Assembly (NCBI GenBank): GCA_947630575.1
Contig: CANRIB010000003.1
Coordinates: forward strand, 15,670-79,669
DNA from: an uncultured Bacilli bacterium
GTDB taxonomy: Bacteria > Bacillota_I > Bacilli_A > RF39 > UBA660
Length of the DNA: 64,000 bases
Direction: 5' to 3'
The first letter of the stretch is position 1, and every line of letters begins with the position of its first letter. This document shows positions 18,087 through 47,377 of the stretch, piece after piece. A program made the translations under genes and the position numbers. Below the pieces are notes generated by a model. That model saw only the letters and a list, made by a program, of their open reading frames with translations, was not told the DNA's origin and did no database searches.

Positions 18087-18923
18087 ATGCAAGATTTTAA
18101 GTTTTTAAATGATGATTTAACATTTAAATATGTTTTTTCTCATGCTTATATTTTAGAATATTTTATTAATTTATTTTTAGATTATATTAATTCTAATTTA
18201 AAGTTTAATATTACTAATGTAGAAGCACAAACATATATTATGCCTAATAATAAAAGTATTAGTTTATATTATGGAGATTTAGTAGCTAATTTATCTAATG
18301 GAACTATAATATCTTTAGAGATGTATAAAAATAAATTTACTTTAAATGATTATAATAAAAGTTATGCTTATAAATGTCGCATATTTGCTAATCAGTTAAA
18401 GAAAGTAAAAAAGAATAAAATAAATTATAAAGATATGAAGCAAGTAATAAGTTTAAATTTAATAAGAGGAAACTTTAATAAAATTAATAATAATATTATA
18501 AATTGTTATAGATTTAAAAATGATAAATTAAATGGAATCATAAAAGATAACACCATTATATATTTAGTAAGATTTGACATAGTAGAAAAAATAGAATATA
18601 ATGAGAATGAACATAAATTTATAACCCTTTTAAGGTTAATAAATGGAGAAAACATCAATGATTTAAAGAAGTATGCGAATGGAGATGAGATAATGGAAGA
18701 TATAATAGAATATGTATTTGAATGGAATAAAGAATCAGCCAAAAATGGCTTAGAAAAACTAATAGAAGATAGAAGTAATGAAGCAGCTTCTAAAGCCGAA
18801 AATAAAGGCCGAAATCAAGAAAAATTTACGATAGCTAAAAATATGTTAGAATTAGATATGTCAGTTGATAATATACATAAAGCAACAGGTTTATCTAAAA
18901 AAGAAATTTTAAGTCTAAAATAG
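18087..18923 (+). CDS. Rpn-family / PD-(D/E)XK nuclease-family putative transposase (paralog 1)
   Basis: N-terminal LNDDLTFKYVFSH and a GD...SLEMYK nuclease-like core, with a C-terminal HTH-like ATGLSKKEI. It is a paralog of 24960..25760. Confidence 0.7.
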   Translation: MQDFKFLNDDLTFKYVFSHAYILEYFINLFLDYINSNLKFNITNVEAQTYIMPNNKSISLYYGDLVANLSNGTIISLEMYKNKFTLNDYNKSYAYKCRIFANQLKKVKKNKINYKDMKQVISLNLIRGNFNKINNNIINCYRFKNDKLNGIIKDNTIIYLVRFDIVEKIEYNENEHKFITLLRLINGENINDLKKYANGDEIMEDIIEYVFEWNKESAKNGLEKLIEDRSNEAASKAENKGRNQEKFTIAKNMLELDMSVDNIHKATGLSKKEILSLK

Positions 18924-22366: not shown

Positions 22367-23992
22367 TTAATTCTTAACTAAAACCGCGTGTACAACTAAT
22401 CGTTTTGAACCATTATCAGAACAAGTAGATAAAGTCAAAATCTTATCTTCAGCATTTACAGGGACTTTAAAATCATAAATGCTTCTTTTAGTTATCATAT
22501 CTGCAAAATCTAAAAAATCTTTATCATCCTTAAAAACAACTTTTAAATAATCATTAGTTTTAGGCACTCTATATATTGAAAAAATTTTAAATTGCATATT
22601 TTCATATAAACTATCATAAGTAATAATTTGATTTTCTGGATTAGTGTACCAACTTTTATTAGCAACTTTATAAAGTGTTCCAAACATAACTCCACTGTAA
22701 TAAACATTATGTCCATAAATAATAGTATTCTTATCCATATTCATTGAATTATTTCGATAATCCATAAATATCCATCCATTTATGGTTTTTTTGCGATTTA
22801 AATCATATTCTAAATAATAATCATTGTCTTTAGTTTGTACAACCGGATAATCAACATTAGTATTATTAACAGTTAAATGTCCGACAATATCTTGATTAAT
22901 AGGAAGCAAACTTGCCAGTTCTGCATTAGTAATCAATTTAATATTATCTTTAGGAACATCTTTTTCCAATGCTTCTTCATTAACTTTTTCTTGTTGTTCA
23001 TCTATTATATTTTTAACTTTTTCATCAGGGGTATTTTCAATTACTTGAGCTAAATTATCTTTTATTGAATCCACATCTTTTAAAGCTATATAATTAGAAA
23101 CTCCAACATAAGTAACCACTAAAATAATTAAACTACAAATAATTAACCCACAAACCTTTAACATATTTGCTATTGTTTGAGCAAAAATATTTTTATCTAA
23201 ATAGTCCTTTGTATATTCTAAAGTTAAATAAATATGATATTTTCTTTTATAAGTTTTATTTAAATCCCTTAAATAATTAGCAGTTTTCTCATCACTTATA
23301 TTTTCATGAATCACAATTTTAATATTTCGTCTATTTAAACTACTTAATATTTTTACTAAACTTTCTAATTCACTATTTATTAATTTATTAACATGTATAA
23401 CTTTCAAATATTTATTAATTTTACAAAAATCCCTAAAATCTTTTAAATCTTCCAAAGTAAAAGGGAAGGTTATTCTAACATTAGTTTTATAATAGATATT
23501 AGAATAACGAATTAAATTATTACTTTCCATAAAATTACTTATATAAAGTATTTCCGAACGAGTATCACACATAATATTATGTTTATCTAAAAGTTCAATC
23601 ATAAAAGGTTGTAAAGCATAACAATTTATATGTTTAATATGTTCTATCTTAATTAACAATTCACATATATTATAAGTTAAAGCTTCATCTTCAAGCAAAG
23701 TAAATTCTTCAATTTGTATTGCTTTCATAAGAAGAGGTAAAACCAATTCCGCTAATTCTATTTTACTTATAACAACTTTATTAATATTATATTGAACAGC
23801 TAATTCTTTAATAAAAGAAGAAAGTATCTTATAGTTATCTTTTATATAGACATCACTAAAAATAAGTTCATTATTACTAATGATATTTGTATTTATTAAA
23901 TCTTTATTAATTTTACTTTTATTCGAATCATAAGAAAAACCAATTTGATTATTATTAATACTAATTAATACCTTTTTCACATTAGCCACCAT
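22367..23992 (-). CDS. sortase (class B-like) fused to a roughly 280-aa N-terminal cytoplasmic domain
   Basis: The C-terminal domain carries a sortase His (IIYGHNV), the TLxTC motif (LTLSTCSD) and an Arg (KRLVVHAVL). A single TM lies near residue 280-300 (VCGLIICSLIILVVTYVGV). The N-terminal domain was not recognised. Confidence 0.75.
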   Translation of the reverse strand: MVANVKKVLISINNNQIGFSYDSNKSKINKDLINTNIISNNELIFSDVYIKDNYKILSSFIKELAVQYNINKVVISKIELAELVLPLLMKAIQIEEFTLLEDEALTYNICELLIKIEHIKHINCYALQPFMIELLDKHNIMCDTRSEILYISNFMESNNLIRYSNIYYKTNVRITFPFTLEDLKDFRDFCKINKYLKVIHVNKLINSELESLVKILSSLNRRNIKIVIHENISDEKTANYLRDLNKTYKRKYHIYLTLEYTKDYLDKNIFAQTIANMLKVCGLIICSLIILVVTYVGVSNYIALKDVDSIKDNLAQVIENTPDEKVKNIIDEQQEKVNEEALEKDVPKDNIKLITNAELASLLPINQDIVGHLTVNNTNVDYPVVQTKDNDYYLEYDLNRKKTINGWIFMDYRNNSMNMDKNTIIYGHNVYYSGVMFGTLYKVANKSWYTNPENQIITYDSLYENMQFKIFSIYRVPKTNDYLKVVFKDDKDFLDFADMITKRSIYDFKVPVNAEDKILTLSTCSDNGSKRLVVHAVLVKN

Positions 23993-24108: not shown

Positions 24109-24759
24109 ATGAAAAAATTAATGGGATTATTAAGTTTAATAGCAATTATGTTATGTATCTTACCAGCAAACGTTTCAGCCGATTCAAAATCAGTCAATAT
24201 ACCAGCTTATGGCACACTTACAATTGATGAAACACCATGGACATCAGAAAATAAAGTTGTTACTCAAGTATATTCAATTACTAAATCTGGACCAATCACG
24301 GCAATTACAATTATACCAGTTTTAAACGTATCTAATGTTAAAATTACAGCTTCATCTTATTTTGACATCATAGATGAACAAACAGGCAGCGATGGATCTG
24401 TTACTGTCTATTTAAAAGCTAAAAATGGTACAGGCGTAAATGGTACTAAAACTGAATTATTAACCGCGGTTGCAGATGGTAATGATAATATTCCATCTGA
24501 AGGTTGTAATTTATCATATAGCCCTATATCATTAAATTGTAGTACAAAAGTAGAAGGATATTATTTTGACGATAATGGCAATAGCATAACTGAAGAAGAA
24601 TATAAAGAAGCTTGTGAAGGAGTAGTTCCACCAAGTAATGATGTTCCAAGCCCTGACACTGGAAGCGTTGTTCCTTATATCGCAGTTGGTGGAGGATTAA
24701 TCGCTATCGCCGGTGTATATCTATATAGTCGTAAATCAAACAAAGTATATAAAATTTAA
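24109..24759 (+). CDS. cell-wall-anchored surface protein with SPDTG sorting signal
   Basis: Signal peptide (LPANVSADS). The C-terminus has SPDTG (24649-24663), a hydrophobic stretch (SVVPYIAVGGGLIAIAGVYLY) and a basic tail (SRKSNK). The gene is divergent from the sortase gene. Confidence 0.7.
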   Translation: MKKLMGLLSLIAIMLCILPANVSADSKSVNIPAYGTLTIDETPWTSENKVVTQVYSITKSGPITAITIIPVLNVSNVKITASSYFDIIDEQTGSDGSVTVYLKAKNGTGVNGTKTELLTAVADGNDNIPSEGCNLSYSPISLNCSTKVEGYYFDDNGNSITEEEYKEACEGVVPPSNDVPSPDTGSVVPYIAVGGGLIAIAGVYLYSRKSNKVYKI

Positions 24760-24959: not shown

Positions 24960-25760
24960 ATGAACTACAAAACATTAAAAGATGATCTAACATTTAAATA
25001 TGTTTTTTCTCATGAAGATATCCTAAAAGATTTTATTGATTCTTTTTTAAATTTTATGGGTCTAAATTATAAAGCTACTCTAACTAATGTTAAAGTTCAA
25101 GATTATATGTTACCTAATAAAGAAAAAGTTAAAGGGTTTTTTGGTGATATAGTCGTAACTTTAAATAATAGTTATATAGTATCATTAGAAATGTATAAGA
25201 AAAATTTCTCTAAAAGAGAATATAAAAAGAGTTTAAGTTATTTACATAAACTAAGTATAGAACAAATGAAGCCTGGCGAAAAGAATTATGAAAAGATAAA
25301 AAAGGTAATAGGAATAAGTTTTATGCAAGGAAACTTTAGAAGAATAAATAAAGAAATAGTAAATAGTTATAGTTTTAGAGAAGAGATAACAGAAAAAGTA
25401 ATAGATGAAGGAGATATAGAATTATACTTAGTAAGATATGATTTAGTACCAAAAAGAAGAACTAAAAAAGAAAAAAGATTTATAAAATGGTTAAGAATGA
25501 TAAATGCCAAAGACATAGAAGAACTAGAAAAAATAGGGAAAGGAGATAAAATAATGGAAAATTCAATTAGAGTAGTAAAAGAATGGTTAGAAGATAGTGC
25601 CAAACATGGATTAGAAAGATATATAGATGATGTTAAATTTGAAGCTACCGAAAATGAAAAAATAAATATAGCGAAAAACATGCTTAATAAAAACATGGAT
25701 ATAAAAGACATTATTGAAATAACAGGTTTATCTAAAAAACAAATTATGCATTTAAATTAA
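24960..25760 (+). CDS. Rpn-family / PD-(D/E)XK nuclease-family putative transposase (paralog 2)
   Basis: Contains LKDDLTFKYVFSH, GDIVV...SLEMYK and a C-terminal ITGLSKKQI. It is a paralog of 18087..18923. Confidence 0.7.
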   Translation: MNYKTLKDDLTFKYVFSHEDILKDFIDSFLNFMGLNYKATLTNVKVQDYMLPNKEKVKGFFGDIVVTLNNSYIVSLEMYKKNFSKREYKKSLSYLHKLSIEQMKPGEKNYEKIKKVIGISFMQGNFRRINKEIVNSYSFREEITEKVIDEGDIELYLVRYDLVPKRRTKKEKRFIKWLRMINAKDIEELEKIGKGDKIMENSIRVVKEWLEDSAKHGLERYIDDVKFEATENEKINIAKNMLNKNMDIKDIIEITGLSKKQIMHLN

Positions 25761-27449: not shown

Positions 27450-28883
27450 ATGAAGAAAAAAGAAAAAAAGTATGGTTTACTTAAAGGAGTCGTAATATTA
27501 GTTCTTATAACTTTAATTCTTTCATGGGTAATTCCAAGTGGTGAATTTGCTGCCAGTGGTTTCGCAAGTGATGGAGTTCCAACAAGAATAGGTTTAAACA
27601 ATTTAGTCTGGCTAATTTATTATGGCTTATATTTTAGTATTGATAAAATCATCATGTTATTAGTTATCGGTGGTTTATATGGAGTTCTTGGTAAAATTAA
27701 GGGATATAATAAACTAGTTACCAACATTGCCTCTAAACTAAAAAAACATAAAAAAGTAACAGTAATATTATTCTCTATTATTATTGCTGCCTTAACAAGC
27801 GTTTTAACTCAGACCTTTGTAGTAATAATATTCATTCCATTTATTGTAGCTATATTAAAAAGAATGAATCTCGACAAACTAACTATTTTAGCCACAACTT
27901 TTGGTTCTATTATGGTTGGAGTATTAGGAGCAACATATGGAACTGAAGGTTTACTATATTTAAGCGAATACATGATAACTGGTGAACAAACAGTTGGGGA
28001 TGTTATTCACATGGGCTTATTAGTTCGTGCTGGTATTTTAGCTATAGGTTTAGTACTATTCAATTTCTTTACTATAGTTCATATGGATAAAGTAAAAAAC
28101 AAAGAAGAAAGTGCTGAAATGTTTGAAATCGAAGAAACAGAAGACACTAAAAAAGCTTATCGTATTCCAATTATTATTTTAGGAATTATAACTTTTGTTA
28201 TAGTTATATTAGCATTTATTAATTGGAATAATAATTTTGGCTTAACTATATTTGAAGATTTCCATGATGAAGTATTTAATATTAAACTTGGTAAGGATTT
28301 CTATATTTTTAAAGATTTATTAGGCGCTAATATGGATGCACTTGGAGCTTGGGATTTATTTTCAATTACAGGACTCATCTTATTATTTACTGGTATTTTA
28401 GCAATATGCTATCGTGTAAAATTTGATGAATTAGTTGAAGGATATATAAATGGTATTAAAAAGATGTTAAAACCAATTGCTTGTGTTTTTGGGGCTTTCA
28501 CATTATTAGTAGTAGTTTATATGTCACCATATGTAGCAACAATAATAAATAAACTCTTTACTTTAACAGATGGGTTTAATTTAGCAACAATGAGTTTATC
28601 TGCTCTCTTAAGTAATATTCTTCATACTGATTTAGGATATACAGGCTATGTACTAGGCTCATATTTAACAACTGAATATATTGATTATATTAATCCAATA
28701 TATATAATATTTACATCTCTATATGGCTTTGTTCAATTCTTTATTCCAACAAGTATTATTTTAGGTATTGGTTTAACATCATTAAATGTTAAATATACTG
28801 ATTGGTTAAAACATATTTGGAAATTCTTAGTTGGAATGTTAATTTGCTTATTAATAATCTTCATATTAATAACAATATTATAG
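27450..28883 (+). CDS. YfcC-family (DcuC-like) polytopic membrane transporter
   Basis: 477-aa multi-TM protein. The N-terminus ...VILVLITLILSWVIPSGEF is typical of YfcC-like carriers. A GGAGGG RBS is present. Confidence 0.6.
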   Translation: MKKKEKKYGLLKGVVILVLITLILSWVIPSGEFAASGFASDGVPTRIGLNNLVWLIYYGLYFSIDKIIMLLVIGGLYGVLGKIKGYNKLVTNIASKLKKHKKVTVILFSIIIAALTSVLTQTFVVIIFIPFIVAILKRMNLDKLTILATTFGSIMVGVLGATYGTEGLLYLSEYMITGEQTVGDVIHMGLLVRAGILAIGLVLFNFFTIVHMDKVKNKEESAEMFEIEETEDTKKAYRIPIIILGIITFVIVILAFINWNNNFGLTIFEDFHDEVFNIKLGKDFYIFKDLLGANMDALGAWDLFSITGLILLFTGILAICYRVKFDELVEGYINGIKKMLKPIACVFGAFTLLVVVYMSPYVATIINKLFTLTDGFNLATMSLSALLSNILHTDLGYTGYVLGSYLTTEYIDYINPIYIIFTSLYGFVQFFIPTSIILGIGLTSLNVKYTDWLKHIWKFLVGMLICLLIIFILITIL

Positions 28884-28920
28884 GAAGCTTAAAGCTTCTT
28901 TTTTGTTGCAATAAAGGGAC

Positions 28921-28949
28921 TTGAAAAAATGTTTGCATCATGCTATAAT
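28921..28949 (+). promoter_or_regulatory. sigma-A-type promoter of the Tad-like operon
   Basis: TTGAAA (28921-28926), 17 nt, then extended -10 TGcTATAAT (28941-28949). It lies just after the terminator of the upstream transporter gene (gaagctt/aagcttc + T6, 28884-28905). Confidence 0.6.
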
Positions 28950-28973: not shown

Positions 28974-29738
28974 ATGAAAAATTTTAAAGTATTAGCTTTA
29001 ATATTATTCATGCTTTTTGTTAGTAAGCCCGTAGTAAATGCCGCATGTTCCGTTGAAGAGAACAGTAAACTATACAAAGAAGCCAGTAATGTTAAAGTAA
29101 GTTATGAAGTGCTTCAGCGCGATGCATCCAATGATCCAGGATTCAATTTCCCTGATGGAATGACTGATGAACAAATCGAAAATTTTACTTGGATGGAAGA
29201 TTATTTTCGGATTTACATTTCAAATTTAACAACAAATTTATATGTAGAAGTTAAAAATAATGTAACTGATGAAGTAAAAACATATAGCTATAGTGATTCT
29301 AATAATGGAATTGTATCATTTGACCAAATGGACAAAGAGCAAATATATAATTACACCGTTACTGTATATAGTTCCATTAATACTAATTGTGAGGGTACAA
29401 AATTATATACCGCTTACACATCAACACCTATGTTCAACTATGTAAGTGATGAGCCCGCTTGTGAAGGTGTCGAAGAATTTTATGCTTGTAAAAAATGGTT
29501 ATCCGTTCCAATTACTAATATGGAAACATTATATGACCGCATTGAGAAATATAAAGAAGGTTTAATTGACAAAGATGGTGAAGAAAAAGAAGAACCATCA
29601 AAAGAAGAAGAAAAGGGATTTAAAAAATTTGTTAAAGAGAATAAAGCAATTATAATTGCTACAACAGTATGCATTGTAGCAGTAGGGGGATTAGTTACAG
29701 TGATAATAGTAAAAAAGCAAAGGAGTAAGAGAATATGA
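28974..29738 (+). CDS. exported type I membrane protein (signal peptide + C-terminal TM), first gene of the Tad-like operon
   Basis: Signal peptide MKNFKVLALILFMLFVSKPVVNA|AC, six further Cys, a C-terminal E/K-rich linker and TM AIIIATTVCIVAVGGLVTVIIV+KKQRSKR. Its stop overlaps the next start (ATGA). Confidence 0.65.
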   Translation: MKNFKVLALILFMLFVSKPVVNAACSVEENSKLYKEASNVKVSYEVLQRDASNDPGFNFPDGMTDEQIENFTWMEDYFRIYISNLTTNLYVEVKNNVTDEVKTYSYSDSNNGIVSFDQMDKEQIYNYTVTVYSSINTNCEGTKLYTAYTSTPMFNYVSDEPACEGVEEFYACKKWLSVPITNMETLYDRIEKYKEGLIDKDGEEKEEPSKEEEKGFKKFVKENKAIIIATTVCIVAVGGLVTVIIVKKQRSKRI

Positions 29739-32700
29739 AAAAAATCTTAAAAAATGCTAATTTATTCATTATTACAATACTTTCATTATTTATCTTTAAT
29801 GTAAAAGCAAATGCTGCTTGTAAAGTAAATACCAAAGATTGCGATCCAAGAAGCGCAGAAAGATATGGCAATATTTATATTACTGGTGAAGATCCAGTAG
29901 GATGGATAAGAAATACTTATGATTCACAAACAACTAAAACCAATAAACATTTTGTTGGTTCTGGAAATCCTCATGTTCAAAAAGAAAATCACTGGAAGCT
30001 AAGTCAAATGGGAGTTACTAAACATGGAAAACATGGATCAGGTGTATTTTCTGTTTATGCCGATCAATATAATTTTCCATTATATTGTTTTGATGCTCAT
30101 AAAATAGGTTATCAATCATTATTTGCCAAAAGATTTTTAATAAATGGTTATGAAAATACAAGCCATGTTGAAATATTTGACCATGCCTTAATGGCAATTT
30201 TAACTTCAGGAAATAACACAATTGCTAATAGTGTTTCATCAGTTAAAAATTATTGGGCTAAATTATTAGCTTTAAGAGGTGTAATAGCCACTTTTGGATA
30301 TTTATCAAGACAAACATCAAGTACATATGATACTGATATATTCTTAGTTTATGGAACTGCCTACAATTGGTTAACTGAAAATAATAATGCGTTATATAAT
30401 AAATTACACGCAGTGGATTCCCATATTGCTAAATTATCAGACATGAATACATATCGAACTTATGGTGGCAGTACACATTACTTTAGTGGTGGACAAGTTA
30501 GTGCAGCTAAAAGCTTATTTATTAAAGGAATTAATGCGGCGATTGACTTTGCCAAAAATCCAACTAAAAAAGTTAGTGCTCAAAATGTAAGTACTCCAAG
30601 TTATGGTGAAAAAGTAGAAAGTCTTAGTCCATCAGGAGATACTATTGTTAGCCAAGATATAGTCCACAAAATTAAAATTAACAATTTAACTAATAGTGCA
30701 GCAACATTAATAGTTAATGATCCTACCTATACAGGTACAGTGCCAAAAGGAATAACAACTCCTCCAACTGTTACAAAAATAAAAATAGGGGATAAAGAAC
30801 TAGATCATTCTGCAGTTGGTCAAAATTTAATTCCATTATCTGGAGCTGATTTCAGTAAAGAAGTTGTTGTTGAAATCACTGTTCATATTGAAGGAAGAAA
30901 AGAAGCTTTTGTAGATACTTCCAATTTAGGAGCAATTTCTCCAGGAGAAGTATTAAAGTGTGGTCAACAACCTATCGAATACGAATTAAAAGTTAAATAT
31001 GATAATAAAGAAAAAAGAGATTATTCTGATTGGGTTGGTGTTGTATGGCAATCAGTTGAGTCAAATTCTCAACGTTATGTAGCAATATATCCAAACGGAA
31101 ATAAAACAGATAGTACTGAACAAGAATTAATTTCTAAAGGTTCAACTGAATTAATTCCACAGTGTGATTGCAAAGATTTAGAAAAATCATGTGAAGTTGA
31201 AGCTAAAGAAACAGGAAACTTAGATGGCCCAGCATGTCAAGAATTAAAAGATTCTAACTGTGGTGATTGTAGTATAATTGAAATTGCATGTGATGTATTA
31301 AAAGATCCAGAAGCTTGTGACGAAAAATATAAATCTTGCGATGTAACATGTAAAACAGAAGTAGATGAATTTGATTGTTGTGATTATTCTGGTGATACAG
31401 CCCATTTAATTGTTGAAGGGGAAAATATACCAGTTAATATTAACGGCCCAGAAGAATCATATGGTTGTTTCGTCGTTGGCGTAGATAAACAAAAAGAAGT
31501 ATCAATTCAAAGTAAAAGTTATGAACAATCTGGATATTCTAATGTAGAAGGTGTTAAAGATGATACCGAAAAAAATACTTATACTTTAACTAAAAATAAA
31601 TATTGTTTAATTTCCTGCAAAGAAGATTATGCAATGTCTCTTCCAACAGCAAGACAAGTAAATGCTGGAAGATACTTTACTTTCAAAGCTCAAGTAAATG
31701 GTACTAAAACATGCTACTCTAATACAATTGATGTGAAACAATTTAATGTAGATATAGGTGATATTGCAAAAGAAATGGAGACGGCTTTAAATAAATATAT
31801 TACTTATAAATATGTTTATGACAATGCTTCAAATTTACTTGACGAACATAAATATAAAGGCGCAAGAACACCTTTACTTGGATGTGGATGTATACCTGAT
31901 AGTTCAAAAGATAAATCAGGAGTAAGTACTAATATACGAGTACCACACTATCAATTTACAATTTCCGAACCAAGTGTAAAATCTATATCAATTCAATACA
32001 CAGCAGCATCAAATTCAAGCTATACATATAATTATACAAATGATTATATTGCAAATTCTATTGAAGATGTTAAGAACTATATCGAAAAAGGGCAATCAGG
32101 AACAACTGCTATTACAGATGGAGGATACTCTTATCAATGTGATAGTCCATGTGGTAAAAATAGTACTACATTAGGAGATAATGCCCATGCTGGAAACCCT
32201 GAATTAGTTAAAGCTAGTCTTAAATATTACAGAGATTATTGGAAAAGCATATTTAATAAATTACAAGATAGATATAATGAACTATTAAAAGAATATGACG
32301 ATTGTTCCAATGATTCTTGGTCAAGTCATTTAAATTATGACCCTAAAATTTATTATAATTATGAAGAGAATTATTTAACAGAATTCTATAATAATTATGG
32401 CACTATGGTTGAATCAAGAGAAGAAGAAAAAACAAATAGTTGGTATTGTCAACCAGGAAAATTAAATGGTGAATATGAAAAAGAAAATTGTAGTTCTAAT
32501 ACAACAAATAGAAATCTACAAAGTATTAAGAGCATATCTTGTAATCTAGATTCAGGGAATATTGACACTATGTGTTCTAATCCAACAAAAAATTTACCTT
32601 ACATTGAATATATAAGTAAATCATCACAAATAACTGCTAATTATAAACCGGAAGTACTATTCTACAATGTTCATCCAAGTGGTGAAATTCTAGACAAAGA

Positions 32701-33643
32701 AAAAGCAAGTAGTAGAGATGATGTTACTCCAGTTACTGATAAAGAAGGAAATGGTGGTTTACCAGTATCCTTAAATACTGAACGAGGAATTTACAAATAT
32801 ACAATTAATATTCAAAAACTTGGTGAATTCTATAGTGATGATTGTAAAAATTCAAATTGTGAATTAGGTCGTTTAATTGGTGGTGGCGAAAATGCTGTTA
32901 TCAATGAAAAAGATTACGAAAAGATTGTTAAAAACAATATTGGTTCATATTCATGTGCATACTTAGTAAATATTAAAAATACTGAAGGTTGGGTATGTGA
33001 CTTTGATCAAGAATGTACAGACGATTGTATATCTGATTGTATAGGACCATATTGTGAACAAGAAATTTGTACAGGAGTTAATTGTATATCTGATTGTGTA
33101 GGTATTGGATGTATATATGATGTAGATGCTGGAAATTCATTTACTCAAAGAACTGTTAGCTTAAGTACATTATTCCCTAATGGAACAACATCTCCAAACT
33201 GGGATCGTTCAAAACCTAAAGCTCAAACTACAATTGATGAGATAGAAGGATTACAAAATAGTGTTTATGAACAACAACCAATATTAAGTATAAAACTTAC
33301 AGGTACTGCTGCTCGTGATATTCAAAAATATAATGCTGAAAATATTCCAGATGGTGATAATAACAGCGGTTCTTGGAACTTAGATTTAGAAACTCTAGGG
33401 GGATATTCAAATCATACTTTAGACTGTTATGCTTTAGGCGATTACAAAGAAGTTGCATGTTATAGTACATTTATTGATGATGTATTAGCAAACAAGTATG
33501 GTAAAATTGTTAATTCTAATAGTTTAATTGCCAATAGTAATTACCGAACTCGTGGTGATGTTAATGGTTCTAAAGATGAATACTTCGAAAAATGGACTGG
33601 AACTGTATCTGAAACTGATATGGTAGGACCAGCTTGGAAGTAA
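29735..33643 (+). CDS. giant exported Cys-rich protein (1302 aa)
   Basis: Signal peptide MKKILKNANLFIITILSLFIFNVKANA|AC. Two dense Cys clusters lie at about nt 31160-31390 and 32990-33125. No TM or sorting signal was seen at the C-terminus. Confidence 0.7.
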   Translation: MKKILKNANLFIITILSLFIFNVKANAACKVNTKDCDPRSAERYGNIYITGEDPVGWIRNTYDSQTTKTNKHFVGSGNPHVQKENHWKLSQMGVTKHGKHGSGVFSVYADQYNFPLYCFDAHKIGYQSLFAKRFLINGYENTSHVEIFDHALMAILTSGNNTIANSVSSVKNYWAKLLALRGVIATFGYLSRQTSSTYDTDIFLVYGTAYNWLTENNNALYNKLHAVDSHIAKLSDMNTYRTYGGSTHYFSGGQVSAAKSLFIKGINAAIDFAKNPTKKVSAQNVSTPSYGEKVESLSPSGDTIVSQDIVHKIKINNLTNSAATLIVNDPTYTGTVPKGITTPPTVTKIKIGDKELDHSAVGQNLIPLSGADFSKEVVVEITVHIEGRKEAFVDTSNLGAISPGEVLKCGQQPIEYELKVKYDNKEKRDYSDWVGVVWQSVESNSQRYVAIYPNGNKTDSTEQELISKGSTELIPQCDCKDLEKSCEVEAKETGNLDGPACQELKDSNCGDCSIIEIACDVLKDPEACDEKYKSCDVTCKTEVDEFDCCDYSGDTAHLIVEGENIPVNINGPEESYGCFVVGVDKQKEVSIQSKSYEQSGYSNVEGVKDDTEKNTYTLTKNKYCLISCKEDYAMSLPTARQVNAGRYFTFKAQVNGTKTCYSNTIDVKQFNVDIGDIAKEMETALNKYITYKYVYDNASNLLDEHKYKGARTPLLGCGCIPDSSKDKSGVSTNIRVPHYQFTISEPSVKSISIQYTAASNSSYTYNYTNDYIANSIEDVKNYIEKGQSGTTAITDGGYSYQCDSPCGKNSTTLGDNAHAGNPELVKASLKYYRDYWKSIFNKLQDRYNELLKEYDDCSNDSWSSHLNYDPKIYYNYEENYLTEFYNNYGTMVESREEEKTNSWYCQPGKLNGEYEKENCSSNTTNRNLQSIKSISCNLDSGNIDTMCSNPTKNLPYIEYISKSSQITANYKPEVLFYNVHPSGEILDKEKASSRDDVTPVTDKEGNGGLPVSLNTERGIYKYTINIQKLGEFYSDDCKNSNCELGRLIGGGENAVINEKDYEKIVKNNIGSYSCAYLVNIKNTEGWVCDFDQECTDDCISDCIGPYCEQEICTGVNCISDCVGIGCIYDVDAGNSFTQRTVSLSTLFPNGTTSPNWDRSKPKAQTTIDEIEGLQNSVYEQQPILSIKLTGTAARDIQKYNAENIPDGDNNSGSWNLDLETLGGYSNHTLDCYALGDYKEVACYSTFIDDVLANKYGKIVNSNSLIANSNYRTRGDVNGSKDEYFEKWTGTVSETDMVGPAWK

Positions 33644-33663
33644 TAGGAAAGGAGTTTTAAAAT

Positions 33664-34074
33664 ATGTCAAGTTCTTATTGGGGTTACTGGTTAGTTGTTT
33701 TAGGCGTTGCTATTGTTGGACTTATTACAGTAGTAAACGGTATAACAACTACCACAACCCAAGATTATTTAAGTATAAAAGAAATAACTGATGCCTCAAT
33801 GTTAGAATCTGTAGACTACGGTTATTATAGAGATTACAACGAAGTTAGAATCAATAAAGAAAAGTTTATGGAAGTCTTTATTAGAAGACTTTCTCAAACA
33901 ATGCAACTACAAGATGAATACGAAGTTAATTTTTATGGAATTTATGAAGCACCTCCAAAAGTAAGTGTAGAAATAAAGAGTTCAACTGGCTCCACAGCTA
34001 TGGCTGCTGGCGGAATGGATGTAATAACTAGATATAATGGCATACTTCAAGTTCATTCACAAGATGGAAAATAG
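33664..34074 (+). CDS. small N-terminally anchored protein (136 aa), possible minor pilin/pseudopilin-like component
   Basis: Single N-terminal hydrophobic segment (YWGYWLVVLGVAIVGLITVVNG) then a Thr run. It sits immediately upstream of the CpaB-like gene. No Flp or TadE consensus is visible. Confidence 0.4.
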   Translation: MSSSYWGYWLVVLGVAIVGLITVVNGITTTTTQDYLSIKEITDASMLESVDYGYYRDYNEVRINKEKFMEVFIRRLSQTMQLQDEYEVNFYGIYEAPPKVSVEIKSSTGSTAMAAGGMDVITRYNGILQVHSQDGK

Positions 34075-34083
34075 GAGGATAAA

Positions 34084-34890
34084 ATGGGAAATATTATAAC
34101 AACACTAAAAAGATTTTTAGCCAACAAAAATACTGTTACAATTATTGGTGTGTTGTTAGGCTTAGTGGTACTTTTTATAGGATATAATTATCGTGTAAAT
34201 AACGCAGTAGAAACGCAAGTAATTCCATATGCAACAAGAACTATTACTGCTACTTCAGAAATTACTAAAGATGCAGTAAGTACTATGGAAGTACTTCGTT
34301 CTACAGTTAAAGATAATACTGCAATAATTTCAAATATCAACTCAGTTTTAAATACTAACGAAACATATTGTGCTTCAGATCGAAGCAATATTCCAGCTGG
34401 TAGTTTCTTCTATACTGAACAAGTAATTCGTTGTGAAGATGTTGCTAATAATGCTCTAAAAAGAATGCCAGACGACTATAGAGCCGTTAATTTACCAGTA
34501 GATTTACAAGACACATACGGAAATTCTATGTATCCTGGAGATTTTATTGATATTTATGCTAAGATGGACATAGATGGAAAATTATTTTATGGTGAATTTA
34601 TTACTAAATTGCCAATCTTAGATGTTCGTGATAGCAATGGTCGTAGTGTATTCTATGGCAATAATCAAAATACTACTCCTGCCTTATTATTATTTGCTTG
34701 CCCTAAGGAATTATATGAATTATTAAGTAGTGCTATATTATTAGGAACTAGCAAAGTAGAATTAATACCTGTTCCTGGTAATGCTAGATATACAAGTGAA
34801 GAAGGAGAAACTGAAATTACCAGCGAGTTCATTAGAGACCGTATTGAATACTATCTAATGCATGACCCTGGAAGTACATCAATAGAATAA
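34084..34890 (+). CDS. CpaB/RcpC-like (SAF-domain) pilus assembly protein
   Basis: N-terminal TM (VTIIGVLLGLVVLFIGY) is followed by VIPYATRTITATSEITKDAVSTMEV, which resembles the SAF domain of CpaB. The gene is directly upstream of the ATPase. Confidence 0.5.
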   Translation: MGNIITTLKRFLANKNTVTIIGVLLGLVVLFIGYNYRVNNAVETQVIPYATRTITATSEITKDAVSTMEVLRSTVKDNTAIISNINSVLNTNETYCASDRSNIPAGSFFYTEQVIRCEDVANNALKRMPDDYRAVNLPVDLQDTYGNSMYPGDFIDIYAKMDIDGKLFYGEFITKLPILDVRDSNGRSVFYGNNQNTTPALLLFACPKELYELLSSAILLGTSKVELIPVPGNARYTSEEGETEITSEFIRDRIEYYLMHDPGSTSIE

Positions 34891-34925: not shown

Positions 34926-36017
34926 ATGAATGATGCAATATTTTCCCAAATAGATTTTGGACCTTTAAAAGAATTTATTGACATAGATGATATCACCGAT
35001 ATATCTTACACCAATGGTGGTCAAGTTTGGTTAAAATCATTAACTAAAGGTGTATATCGTGTTGATAGGCCGGAAATAAATAATGCGTTAATTGAAAAAT
35101 TAGCATTTCAATGTTCAAACGTCATGGGAAAAACATTCAATATGGCACATCCTTTTTTAGATGCTGAAAGTACTGAATTGCGTTTAAATTTCGTCCATGA
35201 TTCGATTGCTACTAATGGAATTGCTTTAGTTATTCGTAAAACTCCCGCTAAAATACGTTTAAATAGGGATAAATTATTAAATGAAGAATACGTAAGCGCC
35301 GATTTACTTGATTTTCTTCTTAACTGTGTTCAAGGCCATGCCAATATTATTGTAAGTGGAGAAACTGGTTCAGGTAAAACTGAATTAGTAAAATATTTAG
35401 CTAGTACAACCAAAGAAAATGAGAAAATAATTACTATCGAAGATACTCTAGAACTTCACTTAGATAGAATATTTCCTCATCGGGATATAGTTGCCATGAA
35501 GACTAATAATATTGCTTCCTATTCTGATGTTTTAGTAACATGTATGCGACAAAATCCTATTTGGATTTTATTATCCGAGGTTAGAAGTGCTGAAGCAGTT
35601 ATGGCTGTTCGTAACTCAATTTCATCTGGACACCATATCATATCTACTATTCACTCAGATAAAGCTGCTTTAATTCCTATGCGTATGTACAGTTTAATAG
35701 AATCAAATATTGATGTTGACCAATTTTTAACAACAATTCATCGATATGTTCAAATAGGAATTTATGTAAAAGGGTATATGAGCGAAAAATTAGGTAGATT
35801 TCAAAGAGAAATTATGGAAATATGCGAGTTTTATGTTGATGATAATAATAAACCTCAAGTCAACACCATCTATCAAAAAACATTGGATGGTAATTTTACC
35901 TTAAATAATCCAACTAAATATTTAAAAAATTATTTATCTATTCAAGGGGTTATCTTAGATGATGATTTATTCCATCTAAATAATAACAAAGTTAATAACG
36001 AAATCGAAGCATTATAA
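34926..36017 (+). CDS. CpaF/TadA/VirB11-family secretion ATPase
   Basis: N-terminal ITDISYTNGGQVWL, Walker A GETGSGKT, Asp box IITIEDTLEL, Walker B-like IWILLSEVRSAEA and His box GHHIISTIHSD. Confidence 0.8.
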   Translation: MNDAIFSQIDFGPLKEFIDIDDITDISYTNGGQVWLKSLTKGVYRVDRPEINNALIEKLAFQCSNVMGKTFNMAHPFLDAESTELRLNFVHDSIATNGIALVIRKTPAKIRLNRDKLLNEEYVSADLLDFLLNCVQGHANIIVSGETGSGKTELVKYLASTTKENEKIITIEDTLELHLDRIFPHRDIVAMKTNNIASYSDVLVTCMRQNPIWILLSEVRSAEAVMAVRNSISSGHHIISTIHSDKAALIPMRMYSLIESNIDVDQFLTTIHRYVQIGIYVKGYMSEKLGRFQREIMEICEFYVDDNNKPQVNTIYQKTLDGNFTLNNPTKYLKNYLSIQGVILDDDLFHLNNNKVNNEIEAL

Positions 36018-36030
36018 TAGGAGGTTAATT

Positions 36031-36927
36031 ATGGAATATATAATAGTAGTATTAATTGCTTTATTTATAATTGTATATCGTAAAAATGACGGTACAGATT
36101 CTTTTTATAATTTTGTTAAAAAGCAATTTAATGCAGTATACAAAAGATATGCTCCATACAGTTATCAAACTATAAGTGCTAAAATGAAAGATTTAAAACA
36201 AGAATATACAATTAAAGATTACACTATTCAAGTTGTAGCTATAGGTGGCCTTGCTGGTGCTATAGCATATCTATACTTTTATAGTTTAATTTTAGTTATA
36301 GTCTATGCAGGAATTGCTATAGCGTTTATCCCATATCTAGCATATTTAAGAAGTAAAAGAATTTATAGTGAATATATATTTGAACAAATTCAAGTTTATA
36401 CAACCAATGTAATTATGGAATTTAATACAACTCAAAGTTTTGTTAAATCTCTTGAAGGTGTAAGAGATTCAGGAATTGTTGAAGATCCCGTATTAGAAGA
36501 TATTAAAACAATGATTAATATGTCATATCAAAATGGAACTATTGATGAATCAATCGAATATTTTAATCAAAAATATCCCTATTACATGGTAAAAAATATG
36601 CACCAATTATTTTTACAGATAACTAAAGAGGGTGCTAAAGACTCAGGTGAAGCTCTAGAAAATATGAGTATGGATATTGATGCTTTAGTTGAAGGTGTTT
36701 ATCGTGACCAAATGGATAGAAAACAATTCCATACCAAATTTATAACTTTCGCTTTAGTATTATTTTTATTAGTATTAGTAATGCAAGTTTTATTAGGTAA
36801 AAATAGTTATTTGGAACTTCTAGAATTATGGTATGTTCATATAATTTTACACGCTATAATAATTATAAATTGTTACTTCCTACTTACAGGCGAAAAATAC
36901 TATAATGATGATGTGGGGGTAGAATAA
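36031..36927 (+). CDS. TadB-like (T2SS-F family) inner-membrane platform protein
   Basis: Topology is an N-terminal TM, paired central TMs, a cytoplasmic helical domain of about 130 aa, then C-terminal TMs. It lies directly after the ATPase and is coupled to the next gene. Confidence 0.55.
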   Translation: MEYIIVVLIALFIIVYRKNDGTDSFYNFVKKQFNAVYKRYAPYSYQTISAKMKDLKQEYTIKDYTIQVVAIGGLAGAIAYLYFYSLILVIVYAGIAIAFIPYLAYLRSKRIYSEYIFEQIQVYTTNVIMEFNTTQSFVKSLEGVRDSGIVEDPVLEDIKTMINMSYQNGTIDESIEYFNQKYPYYMVKNMHQLFLQITKEGAKDSGEALENMSMDIDALVEGVYRDQMDRKQFHTKFITFALVLFLLVLVMQVLLGKNSYLELLELWYVHIILHAIIIINCYFLLTGEKYYNDDVGVE

Positions 36928-37715
36928 TGCAAATAGAAATCGCAATAGTTGCACTAATAATATTTTATATTTTAACCAAAAGTGGCAAAATTAGCATAAG
37001 TAAATTAATTGCCGATAATGAAATGTATCTTCGTCGATTAAAAGAAAGCGATTATGATTTTTATGTAAAAGCCAAGTATGGTGATTCTGTAAACCCAGAT
37101 ATTTTATTCAGTAAAAGACTTCAAAATGCTTTAATAGTAATGTTAGTAATATTCTGTTTATTATTAAAAAACATGTCTTATGTTTATTTAATAGTGTGTA
37201 TAGTTGCCGGTTTTGCTTTCTTTAAGCTTGATTACATAAACTTAAAGAATTATTATAAAAGGCATTTGCATGAAATAGATACTATGCTTCCATATTATTT
37301 AAAAGGTTTAGAAATATTGATTCAACATTATACCGTTCCTGTAGCCATTGGTAAATCATTAGAAGATGCTCCCGATATATTCAAAGATGGTCTAAAAGAA
37401 TTAATTAATGAAATTAATGCTGGTAATGATACAATAGAACCATATATGGAATTTGCTAGACAATATCCAGTTCGTGATTCTATGCGTATGATGCGTTTAT
37501 TATATCGTTTAAGTCTTGGACGTCAAGAAAGAAAACAAGAACAATTACTTGCATTTTCTAAAACAATTTCAAATTTACAACAAAAAGCTCGAGAAACAAA
37601 ATATAAAAATAGACTTGATAAAATGGAAAGTAAAACAATGAGTATGCTTGTTACTACTGGCTTAGGTGTTATGATTTTATTAGTTTTAGCGGTTATTACC
37701 ATGATGGGAATATAG
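36927..37715 (+). CDS. TadC-like (T2SS-F family) inner-membrane platform protein
   Basis: Same topology class as the previous gene. ATG overlaps the previous stop (TAATG). Confidence 0.55.
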   Translation: MQIEIAIVALIIFYILTKSGKISISKLIADNEMYLRRLKESDYDFYVKAKYGDSVNPDILFSKRLQNALIVMLVIFCLLLKNMSYVYLIVCIVAGFAFFKLDYINLKNYYKRHLHEIDTMLPYYLKGLEILIQHYTVPVAIGKSLEDAPDIFKDGLKELINEINAGNDTIEPYMEFARQYPVRDSMRMMRLLYRLSLGRQERKQEQLLAFSKTISNLQQKARETKYKNRLDKMESKTMSMLVTTGLGVMILLVLAVITMMGI

Positions 37716-37806
37716 ACAAAATTTGACATAAAAATAGTGAAAAACTTGACAAGTATCGTAAGATAATATAAAATATAGATATAAATAAGAAAGCGAGGGA
37801 ATTAAT

Positions 37807-38160
37807 ATGTTATTAATGGCACCGTCAATATGTACAGATTTAGCCCCAATATGGCAAATTATTGGTTGGGTATTATGGGTATTTAAAATTGCAATTCCAA
37901 TAGTTATAATTGTTTTTGGAATGATTGATTTAGGAAAAGCAGTTGTAGCAAGTAAAGATGATGAAATTAAAAAATCTGTTAAATCTTTAGTAATGCGTGC
38001 TATCGCAGGTATCGTAATATTCTTTATTCCAACAATTGTAGGAGCAATTTTTGGTTTAGTAAGTGAGTTCAAAGATGATCCTGCATATACTAATGAATTT
38101 AAAATATGCCGAACTTGTATTGTTCATCCTGGGGATAGTAATTGTAATCCAAATAATTAA
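37807..38160 (+). CDS. small 2-TM protein, TrbC/VirB2-type pilin-like, with Cys-containing C-terminal tail
   Basis: Has its own promoter: TTGACA, 17 nt, then TAAAAT (about 37746-37774), plus a GAGGGA RBS. Two hydrophobic helices flank the loop GKAVVASKDDEIKKSVKS. Terminator at 38168-38192. Confidence 0.45.
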   Translation: MLLMAPSICTDLAPIWQIIGWVLWVFKIAIPIVIIVFGMIDLGKAVVASKDDEIKKSVKSLVMRAIAGIVIFFIPTIVGAIFGLVSEFKDDPAYTNEFKICRTCIVHPGDSNCNPNN

Positions 38161-38167
38161 AAATAAT

Positions 38168-38192
38168 AATTCCATTTTTGGAATTTTTTTTT
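38168..38192 (+). terminator. intrinsic terminator closing the Tad-like locus
   Basis: aattcca-tttt-tggaatt followed by a T-run. Confidence 0.7.
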
Positions 38193-38726
38193 AAACTAAA
38201 ATATAAATGCTTGCCCAAGAAAATTAGCAAAGTTCCAATTTTTGAAAATTGATATTAAATTTTAATAAAAGTTTTCAATAAAATAAAAATTAGTTTTTCT
38301 TGAATAAAAAGCACATATATAGTGAATAAAATAATTAAAAATATTAAAAACATTTGCCTTTTTTAAAATTAAGTGCTAATATATAAACATCAATTTAAAA
38401 AGAGGAACATATTTAGAACTAAACACTAAGCAATGTTTTTTAAACAAAGTTCTCACTTTTTGAATGATAAATATATAGTTGATTAATGACTTATTTGTCA
38501 TGAATAATTACTTAGTTAGGACATAAGTAATTATTTTTTTAAATAAAAATTAAAGAATAGATATTTTTATTATTTAATTTAAGCTCTAGGAACATTATTT
38601 ATATTTTTAAACTAAATTCTCATCTAATATTTTTCGGGAACTTTAAATAATAAGTAACATTTTTGAAAATTTTGTGCATAAAAATATTGACTTTAAACAT
38701 AATATATACTATACTTTAGTAGTACT

Positions 38727-38802
38727 GCCCAATTAGCTCAGTCGGTAGAGCGCACGGCTGTTAACCGTTAGGTCGTAGGTTCGAGTCCTACATTGGGCGC
38801 CA
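38727..38802 (+). tRNA. tRNA-Asn (GTT anticodon), CCA encoded
   Basis: Cloverleaf readable by eye: acceptor gcccaat/attgggc, D-arm gctcagtcggtagagc, anticodon loop ctGTTaa, T-arm gtaggttcgagtcctac, then gCCA. A TTGACT-17-TATACT promoter lies upstream. Confidence 0.95.
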
Positions 38803-38980
38803 TTAAGAATATTAAGCAAGTTTGATAAATATCCATACTTGCTTTTATTTTGTATTTAACTAAAATTATTTCAAAAATCTAACATTATAAATTATGATTG
38901 TATAATAGATTCAAAATAAATATTTAATTGTAAAAAGTTTTTCAATATAGTATAATAATTTTATTACAGGAAGGTTTATC

Positions 38981-47257: not shown

Positions 47258-47377
47258 AGATATCACTCCTAATAAAATTTTAATAAATTGTATTACTTTT
47301 TGTAAGTTACACAATTTGTGTTACATTTATTCAAAAAATATGTTATAATAATTTTAATTAAAATAGGAGTGATAAAA

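Follow-up and report, generated by a model that had tools for sequence, protein, structure and literature searches.

The 64,000-nucleotide (nt) stretch of DNA considered here (the window), from contig CANRIB010000003.1 of an uncultured Bacilli bacterium, has about 27% G+C and carries an operon in which the gene for a very large exported protein of 1302 amino acids (aa), referred to below as the giant protein, stands beside genes for a secretion ATPase and associated membrane proteins. The initial annotation had drawn attention to the giant protein for its two dense Cys clusters. The features of the giant gene are as follows.

29735..33643, + strand: giant gene (ATG start, 1302 aa), encoding a secreted Cys-rich protein
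29735 (first nt) to 29815 (last nt), + strand: signal peptide, residues 1-27, with a signal peptidase I (SPase I) site A-N-A/A (the slash marks cleavage here and below)
29816..31144, + strand: predicted Class II-type thioester domain (TED), residues 28-470, from an AlphaFold2 (AF2) model, Foldseek and hhalign
30086..30088, + strand: codon of Cys118 in Y-C-F-D, candidate thioester Cys
31070..31072, + strand: codon of Gln446 in S-Q-R-Y-V, candidate thioester Gln
31163..31384, + strand: Cys cluster 1, residues 477-550, four short helices, each with Cx6C or (once) Cx7C
31391..33640, + strand: family-defining C-terminal region, residues 553-1302 (modules M1, V, M2, C2, and CT), from an AF2 model
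32996..33112, + strand: Cys cluster 2, residues 1088-1126, with nine invariant Cys (CDFDxxCxxDCIxDCIGPxC...CxGxxCIxDCxGxGC)
33626..33640, + strand: extreme C-terminus G-P-A-W-K, matching the family hallmark GP[SA][WY][KR]

The giant open reading frame (ORF) is real. Its N-terminus is a typical Sec/SPase I signal, present as first described and cleaved at ...VKANA/AC; Ala27, at position -1, is invariant in an alignment of 18 relatives. The Ala-Cys start proposed for the mature protein holds for the giant protein and for the product of the upstream gene (...VVNA/AC), but it is not kept among relatives: one (P0002) has AT/C at the junction and another (P0003) has no Cys there. A lipoprotein reading was rejected, as positions -3 to +1 read N-A-A-C with no lipobox and the Cys is not conserved. 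Cys makes up 3.3% of the giant protein (43 residues), compared with 0.95% for the remaining 47 ORFs of the window. It has no match in Pfam, NCBIfam, PHROG or the sequences of the PDB, and it has no LPXTG signal, no C-terminal transmembrane helix (TM), and no Cna match in Pfam or NCBIfam, ending instead in ...MVGPAWK. The initial annotation was right about the missing sorting signal and C-terminal TM but overlooked that this end is a conserved signature, GP[SA][WY][KR]-COOH. The signature is the exact C-terminus of 122 of the 151 proteins listed, and nearly all the other complete proteins listed carry it at the end or a few residues before. Head-to-tail covalent polymerization through a C-terminal Lys was considered and down-weighted, since several members have Arg in place of Lys.

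The giant protein belongs to a large family. An exhaustive HMMER search found 440 cluster representatives with an expect value (E) below 1e-3, 166 of them below 1e-30; the family size is taken from this search, as a word-indexed homologue search returned two relatives only, even with an 18-sequence profile. Every cluster checked was named only "hypothetical protein". A genome scan identified 17 loci carrying relatives, and the traced relatives come mostly from gut and other host-associated metagenomes, in metagenome-assembled genomes (MAGs) labeled as uncultured Bacilli, "Mycoplasma sp. CAG:776", Tenericutes or Mycoplasmatota. With domain hidden Markov models (HMMs) built from 18 full-length relatives, modules M1 (residues 553-680), M2 (861-1085), and CT (1131-1302) are common to essentially all of the 150 members listed; the N-terminal domains and both Cys clusters are recognizable in sequence only in about 50 closer members. 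Cys-richness is found in all family members, and one distant member has an NlpC/P60 insert. Some genomes carry more than one copy: a second full-length giant paralogue lies directly upstream of the operon at two loci (L012:5349-9131 and L013:4839-8738), and one MAG has two separate copies of the giant gene together with the gene that precedes it (L005 and L007).

The strongest indication of function comes from the N-terminal domain, which the initial annotation missed in treating the Cys clusters as the key element. AF2 was run on segments with alignments of the homologues found here, a course that the initial annotation had recommended, and residues 28-582 and 553-1302 were modeled. The model of residues 28-582 (pLDDT 85.3, pTM 0.75) has a predicted layout of a β-barrel and helical lobe (about residues 28-275) followed by a β-sandwich (about 280-470), and the order of its secondary-structure elements is consistent with a Class II TED. 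Foldseek returned only two significant PDB matches for this model, and both are Class II TEDs: Enterococcus faecium TIE86-TED (EfmTIE86; 6fwy, E 1e-6, probability 1.0) and Bacillus anthracis BaTIE (6fwv, E 9.6e-4, probability 1.0). The thioester Cys and Gln are the only universally conserved residues of TEDs, and in Class II the Gln is delivered by a β-hairpin of the inserted β-sandwich (PMC6194298). In the giant protein a predicted strand of the first lobe carries L-Y-C118-F-D, and S-Q446-R-Y-V opens the second strand of a β-hairpin (433-440/447-454) in the β-sandwich. Among 133 full-length representatives, counted over their first 480 residues, Cys118 is kept in all 133 and Gln446 in 132; position 117 is Tyr, Phe or Trp in 130 and position 120 is Asp or Asn in 117. 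Gln446 is followed by Arg, Asn or Lys, and position 448 is Phe, Tyr, Met or Leu. The preceding Ser is not hydrophobic, unlike the residue at this place in the TED motif (Y-Q-R-L-M in TIE-pLS20, the thioester adhesin of plasmid pLS20).

Profile comparison points the same way. When a 122-sequence family profile was aligned by hhalign with TIE-pLS20 (E 9.8e-5, probability 58%, one target), the Cys half matched, with Cys118 falling on the thioester Cys of TIE-pLS20 and FDHALMAILTSG on YDDGVKAILYYG. No match to TIE-pLS20 was obtained with an 18-sequence profile, or with the Gln hairpin alone from the 122-sequence profile, and a search of profile A3 against the PDB gave only noise and no TED. Taken with the AF2 model, these results make it quite probable that the N-terminal 440 or so aa of the giant protein form a Class II-type TED.

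The predicted architecture resembles that of the Class II TIE adhesins (TIE-pLS20, BaTIE, EfmTIE86, and SaTIE) in having a signal peptide followed by a distal head of a β-barrel/helical lobe with an inserted β-sandwich, and two universal residues, Cys in [YF]C-x-[DN] and Gln in Q-R-[FYLM]. The likeness to TIE-pLS20 extends further, as both proteins lack a sortase signal and are encoded upstream of a DUF5411-like gene, a VirB11/CpaF-type ATPase gene, and genes for two membrane proteins. The giant protein differs from Class II TIE adhesins in having no CnaB/isopeptide stalk, in place of which it has a Cx6C helical stalk and a body of about 750 aa ending in GPxWK; in being very Cys-rich and chromosomally encoded, with no type IV secretion system (T4SS) core nearby; and in going unseen by the Pfam TED models. 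Relative to sortase-anchored TIE/MSCRAMM proteins it lacks LPXTG, a TM helix, and a CnaB stalk. The thioester Cys of TIE-pLS20 is needed for function, and how TIE-pLS20, which has no sortase signal, is retained on the cell is an open question (PMC8092201).

Both Cys clusters were found where the initial annotation had placed them, with exactly the letters quoted, and the 21-nt word TTGTATATCTGATTGTRTAGG does occur twice within cluster 2, at 33025 and 33082, a duplication not expected in 100 shuffles of the sequence. The clusters are not a product of chance, because 27 Cys are invariant across 18 full-length relatives, including seven in cluster 1 and all nine of cluster 2. Cluster 2 contains a duplicated motif, DC-I-x-DC-I-G-x-x-C, and has low pLDDT in the AF2 model, whereas the four helices of cluster 1 are modeled with high confidence (residues 28-582). 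The number of Cx6C helices per relative ranges from two to seven, so that array length is variable, and the Cys count of cluster 1 in relatives is always 8, 12, 16 or 20, which implies that units of four are gained or lost together. The simplest reading of these predicted helices is that cluster 1 would form helical hairpins with two disulfides each, making a stalk of variable length. Disulfide-stabilized modules, as first proposed, are thus plausible for cluster 1. Twin CxnC helical hairpins of the CHCH type likewise consist of short helix pairs with two Cys each, one to two turns apart, in four-Cys units; the giant protein differs in its spacing (x6, not x9 or x3), its extracellular bacterial setting, and its tandem arrays, and its disulfides are predicted.

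The alternative that the clusters bind metal (zinc or an iron-sulfur center) and are not disulfide staples would suit a strict anaerobe; the host is a gut anaerobe, and cluster 2, with its CxxxC/CxxxxC spacings, takes no confident fold when modeled without ligands. Metal binding is nevertheless unlikely, as the motifs contain no His or other typical co-ligands, and the Cys of cluster 1, placed at i and i+7 along predicted helices, come in sets of four, like those of twin-CxnC disulfide hairpins. In one distant relative (L027) a gene for a PedC-like membrane protein with a thioredoxin fold lies directly upstream of the operon (L027:8678-9118, - strand), which also speaks for disulfides; this protein, for which the window showed no counterpart, is possibly a dedicated disulfide catalyst. 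The PedC-like gene adjoins Rce1-like and metallophosphatase genes, and a second distant locus (L025) has those two as well.

The C-terminal body is the most widely conserved part of the family and resembles nothing known. The model of residues 553-1302 (pLDDT 81.9, pTM 0.68) has no significant match among PDB and BFVD folds; hits to perforin-2 (E 0.058) and a viral MACPF protein (E 0.009) were dismissed as chance, with TM-scores below 0.1 and probabilities of at most 0.03. A tblastn search of the C-terminal half against plasmids gave no match, and the domain HMMs from the 18 close relatives found nothing among the ORFs of pLS20 and pJM4A, so the body is not a fused pLS20 gene. In general plan the giant protein recalls PilC/PilY1, likewise a large (about 1000-1300 aa) Sec-exported non-pilin that is encoded in a pilus operon beside pilin-like genes and in which the N-terminal module is adhesive and the C-terminal module is conserved and closes with a short peptide. 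PilC/PilY1 docks by a C-terminal peptide or strand (PMC12918778). No sequence or fold similarity between the two was detected and no β-propeller was recognized in the giant protein, for which C-terminal docking is proposed by analogy.

The remaining genes of the operon, and the signals around them, are listed below.

28882-28900: terminator-like hairpin, just before the promoter-like site
28921..28949, + strand: promoter-like site TTGAAA-17-TATAAT with TG, a match to consensus only; likely operon start
28974..29738, + strand: 254-aa partner with a Sec signal, an ectodomain of about 190 aa (5 Cys), a Glu/Lys-rich linker, a C-terminal TM, and a basic tail
33664..34074, + strand: DUF5411 protein, 136 aa (Pfam E 7.7e-49), N-terminal hydrophobic helix and small domain
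34084..34890, + strand: CpaB/RcpC-like protein, 268 aa, N-terminal TM (TIGR03177 E 1.4e-7, below cut-off; RcpC weak)
34926..36017, + strand: CpaF/FlaI/VirB11-clade secretion ATPase, 363 aa (T2SSE E 8e-27)
36031..36927, + strand: 298-aa polytopic membrane protein, 85-92% identical across the clade
36927..37715, + strand: 262-aa polytopic membrane protein, weakly similar to the pLS20 gene-39 product
37746-37774: promoter-like site of the 117-aa gene
37807..38160, + strand: 117-aa two-TM T4SS_pilin (VirB2-like) protein (Pfam E 3.6e-4)

The stop codon of the 254-aa partner gene, for which the best start is the ATG at 28974, overlaps the start of the giant gene. The partner has the same position in all loci and is 29-30% identical to its counterparts at L025 and L027, and it has no family match in Pfam, NCBIfam or PHROG. 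The leader of the DUF5411 protein resembles those of pilin-like genes at L025, making it pilin-like by leader. Against the PDB the ATPase matches CpaF best (2e-16) and also FlaI and VirB11, and it does not reach the equivalog cut-off of the VirB11, TadA or TrbB model. The size, order, and topology of the 298-aa and 262-aa proteins suggest that they may be TadB-like and TadC-like platform proteins. The L027 homologue of the 117-aa protein (58% identical) passes the Pfam cut-off for T4SS_pilin, and a T4SS_pilin-like gene follows the operon in 13 other loci. The VirB2-like proteins of the window, L025, and L027 share a conserved tail, C-x2-C-I-x2-P-x3-4-C, and L025 and L027 have small pilin-like proteins that are rich in Cys as well, so Cys-richness is common to most of the predicted extracellular parts of the apparatus.

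The same order of seven to eight genes is found in two database relatives, in 14 further genomes from GTDB, and at two very distant loci; it is kept wherever flanking sequence is available, even where the giant protein matches only at E of about 1e-35 to 1e-52. Inspection of the neighbors of homologues, suggested in the initial annotation, thus found an operon with a CpaF-like ATPase at all loci inspected. Identity between loci is 33-54% for the giant protein and 82-94% for the ATPase and the two membrane proteins. The contrast between the membrane proteins (36031-37715; 85-94%) and the giant protein (29735-33643; 33-54%) is unusually steep for genes of one operon. Judged from these identities, it fits a conserved engine whose working end is exposed and evolves fast.

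At L025 and L027 the membrane protein genes are followed by two small Cys-rich pilin-like genes with the leader MKEATG/E..., then by two minor-pilin-like genes, a gene of 321-339 aa, and the T4SS_pilin gene. Pilin-like genes with the MKEATG leader are absent from the operon locus in the clade of the window, which may therefore have lost or relocated them, and no Flp pilin, TadV or TadE/F/G was recognized in the 64-kb window. In the window the T4SS_pilin-like gene is followed by an AT-rich stretch of about 820 nt (38161-38980, about 22% G+C) with no ORF of note, which separates it from addB. The operon shares with Tad (type IVc) systems a CpaF-clade ATPase, a CpaB/RcpC-like protein, and two consecutive polytopic proteins of TadB/TadC size, and its distant loci add small pilin-like and minor-pilin-like genes; it differs from Tad systems in platform proteins that are not detectably T2SSF-like, in the non-canonical leaders MKEATG/E..., and in the added VirB2-like protein.

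A closer parallel is found in the conjugation operon of pLS20, in which the gene for TIE-pLS20 (Pfam TED_2/TED) is followed by two small genes and then by gene 36, whose 126-aa product matches DUF5411 with E 1.4e-5, just below the Pfam cut-off. Next come a T2SSE ATPase (TadA/gene 37), 31.6% identical to the ATPase of the window (E 4e-40), and a pair of membrane proteins, one of 267 aa and one of 245 aa; the latter (gene 39) is weakly similar to the 262-aa protein (BLASTP E 4.6e-4 in a 14-protein database). Further downstream are small membrane proteins, a 76-aa T4SS_pilin protein, and then VirD4 and the rest of the T4SS. The neighbors of the adhesin gene in the pLS20 family are conserved and of unknown function, and the ATPase has been described as a putative VirB11 (PMC8557374). 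Among Firmicute plasmids, 601 carry a relative of the ATPase (about 31% identity), and 358 of these are typed as conjugative. In pJM4A of Lactococcus cremoris (L031, 4907-9894) a CpaF/VirB11 ATPase and two hypothetical proteins of membrane-protein size are followed by a BspA-type leucine-rich repeat (LRR) surface protein, which suggests that the ATPase module may pair with different types of adhesin. This arrangement echoes an uncharacterized operon of DUF5411, CpaF, and PilC-like genes with a gene for a large surface/invasion-type protein, predicted to be secretion-related, that Miller et al. (2022) described in the gut Firmicutes (Clostridia) Roseburia, Ruminococcus, and Eubacterium (PMC9523054); the large protein, compared here by description, is said to be internalin-B-like, with no thioester domain reported.

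No VirB4, VirD4, VirB6, relaxase or integrase gene lies beside the window operon, and no T4SS core or relaxase domain was found in the window ORFs scanned. As it stands, with no VirB4, VirD4 or relaxase nearby, the operon is not a conjugation system; with Gram-positive conjugative T4SSs it shares only the VirB11-like ATPase and the VirB2-like T4SS_pilin protein. It is best explained as a relative of the adhesin/VirB11 module of pLS20-type plasmids that stands on its own in the chromosome. The earlier suggestion of an adhesin, fibre tip or cargo of the adjacent ATPase system is borne out to the extent that the giant protein is very probably a large adhesin and is genetically tied to that system; the nearest characterized relative of the locus is the TIE/VirB11 module of the pLS20 conjugation operon, not a classical Tad locus.

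Together, these observations favor, with a probability of about 0.6, the reading that the giant protein is a Sec-exported, sortase-independent surface adhesin that binds covalently and is presented by a Tad-like machine. An internal thioester between Cys118 and Gln446 would react with an amine on a target, either the host or another cell, to give covalent attachment. The β-sandwich and a stalk of Cx6C helices, presumably stapled by disulfides, would hold the head off the body of about 750 residues. The C-terminal body with its invariant GPxWK end may dock the giant protein to other proteins of its operon, the candidates being the translationally coupled, membrane-anchored 254-aa partner and/or a type-IV-filament-like machine, whose putative parts are the pilin-like DUF5411 protein, the CpaB-like protein, the CpaF/VirB11-type ATPase, the two membrane proteins, and the VirB2-like protein. 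If docking were to pilin-like subunits, the ATPase could move the docked giant protein, analogous to the docking of PilC/PilY1 by its C-terminal strand (PMC12918778). In pLS20, which offers a parallel, the thioester adhesin mediates mating-pair formation.

Several observations weigh against this reading. The Foldseek matches to TEDs have TM-scores of only 0.22-0.35, with root-mean-square deviations of about 11 Å. The Pfam models TED (PF08341) and TED_2 (PF20610), which detect TIE-pLS20, match neither the giant protein nor 15 other members at E up to 0.1-1. The spacing between Cys118 and Gln446 is 328 residues, compared with 171-204 in solved TEDs, and the TQxx-φ-W motif is half present (SVKNYW), with Tyr and Trp kept and Thr and Gln absent; the Trp of this helix is lost in distant members. 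The motif, in helix α2 of known TEDs, is not essential for bond formation (PMC6194298). On the side of the machine, the 298-aa and 262-aa proteins have no T2SSF match, no PDB profile match, and no similarity to TadB, TadC or PilC, and their similarity to each other, as paralogy would predict, is not significant; no pilin, prepilin-peptidase or TadZ gene is present in the 64-kb window, and the docking step is drawn from analogy only. Evidence for expression is weak: two near-identical contigs, corresponding to 33176-33403 and 33598-33837, occur at low depth in one public metatranscriptome run (X11), where carried-over DNA may be their source. The second contig spans the junction of the giant and DUF5411 genes and hints at co-transcription.

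The universally conserved part of the family is its C-terminal 750 or so aa (M1, M2, and CT), which have no recognizable adhesin fold and are always encoded adjacent to the CpaB-like gene. The giant protein might thus be a structural part of the machine and not an adhesin, such as a wall-spanning conduit or alignment piece that replaces the secretin/RcpC of diderm Tad systems, with the Cys/Gln pair serving internal stability. Thioesters add little to the stability of known TEDs (PMC6194298), however, and the giant protein evolves far faster than the machinery and has an N-terminal head that matches adhesin TEDs, so that a purely structural role is rather improbable. The presence of a Sec signal with no anchor, the lack of major pilin genes beside the operon in the clade of the window, and the NlpC/P60 insert of one distant member would suit a cargo, that is, a distant toxin or enzyme pushed in folded form through the thick wall by a pseudopilus like that of type II secretion systems. 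Here too the chances are low: the universal TED Cys/Gln pair points to binding, the coupled membrane-anchored partner and invariant C-terminal peptide suggest retention, and no enzymatic or toxin fold was detected.

The module order shared with pLS20, the plasmid-borne relatives of the ATPase, many of them conjugative, and the VirB2-like T4SS_pilin gene could also mean that the operon belongs to an integrated conjugative element or is what is left of one, with the giant protein as a mating-pair adhesin as in pLS20. This is very improbable, given that the conjugation genes named above are missing, that addB/addA follow directly, and that the chromosomal surroundings recur. In the clade of the window the operon lies between lysS with a gene for a DcuC-like transporter and addB/addA, with the same neighbors in many species, and genes for peptidase M29 and tyrS are found within about 15 kb upstream both in the window and at the distant locus L027. 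Shared chromosomal neighbors point to vertical inheritance rather than a mobile element. A phage or plasmid origin of the window locus likewise found no support in PHROG and plasmid searches and was set aside in view of the conserved chromosomal synteny.

The reading of the giant protein as a covalent adhesin presented by a Tad-like machine can be extended, although the extension as a whole is tentative and must be considered doubtful. The operon would represent an unrecognized class of type-IV-filament-like machine in Firmicutes that presents a covalent thioester adhesin. Docking of the giant protein onto the DUF5411 and VirB2-like subunits would occur through GPxWK, and the CpaF/VirB11 ATPase would extend or retract the docked protein. 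If so, the same device in pLS20-type plasmids would be the long-missing "pilus equivalent" of Gram-positive conjugation, and the chromosomal copies in gut Bacilli with reduced genomes would be a domesticated version for attachment to host or partner cells.

To our knowledge, thioester domains are the only bacterial adhesin modules that bind their targets covalently, and they have so far been known on sortase-anchored proteins and sortase pili. No paper linking thioester domains with type IV filament machinery was found, which is not proof of absence. What is new here is the probable assignment of a TED head to a large unannotated family of at least 440 sequence clusters; the architecture of that family, with a Cx6C stalk, a body of no known fold, and a GPxWK end; and its constant pairing with a Tad-like/VirB11 module that also occurs in pLS20-type plasmids. 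The family is thereby linked genetically to an ATP-driven, Tad-like machine. Gram-positive elements are said not to form conjugative pili (PMC8557374), and the link provides a testable idea of how their plasmids present an adhesin. The fixed chromosomal site in uncultured gut Bacilli with small genomes suggests that the module is central to holding their niche, and the Cx6C stalk and the 750-aa body are new structural material.

The window also encodes a sortase, a MurJ-like flippase, MurG, MurB, FtsQ, the germination protease Gpr, and SpoIIP; the sortase, wall genes, Gpr, and SpoIIP indicate that the host is a Firmicute that has a cell wall and probably forms spores. Rabbit gut metagenomes contain near-identical DNA.

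Other genes of the window may concern the cell surface. Two adjacent Cys-rich ORFs with no Pfam match lie at 47318-49231 (637 aa, 14 Cys) and 49248-50378 (376 aa, 9 Cys); the start of the 637-aa ORF (...YAFLSTSDKQELANTFTSG...) we take to be TasA/camelysin-like with a SipW-type signal. A 541-aa protein with a C-terminal sortase domain and a long N-terminal extension (22367-23992, - strand) is encoded divergently from a 216-aa surface protein with an SPDTG-type sorting signal, a TM, and a basic tail (24109-24759, + strand). A 630-aa protein with three Listeria-Bacteroides (Flg_new) repeats, probably also a surface protein, is encoded at 12079-13971. Upstream of the operon are two paralogous PD-(D/E)XK_2 (Rpn/transposase-like) genes (18087-18923 and 24960-25760), and an IS1595-type transposase gene lies at 50458-51513 (- strand).

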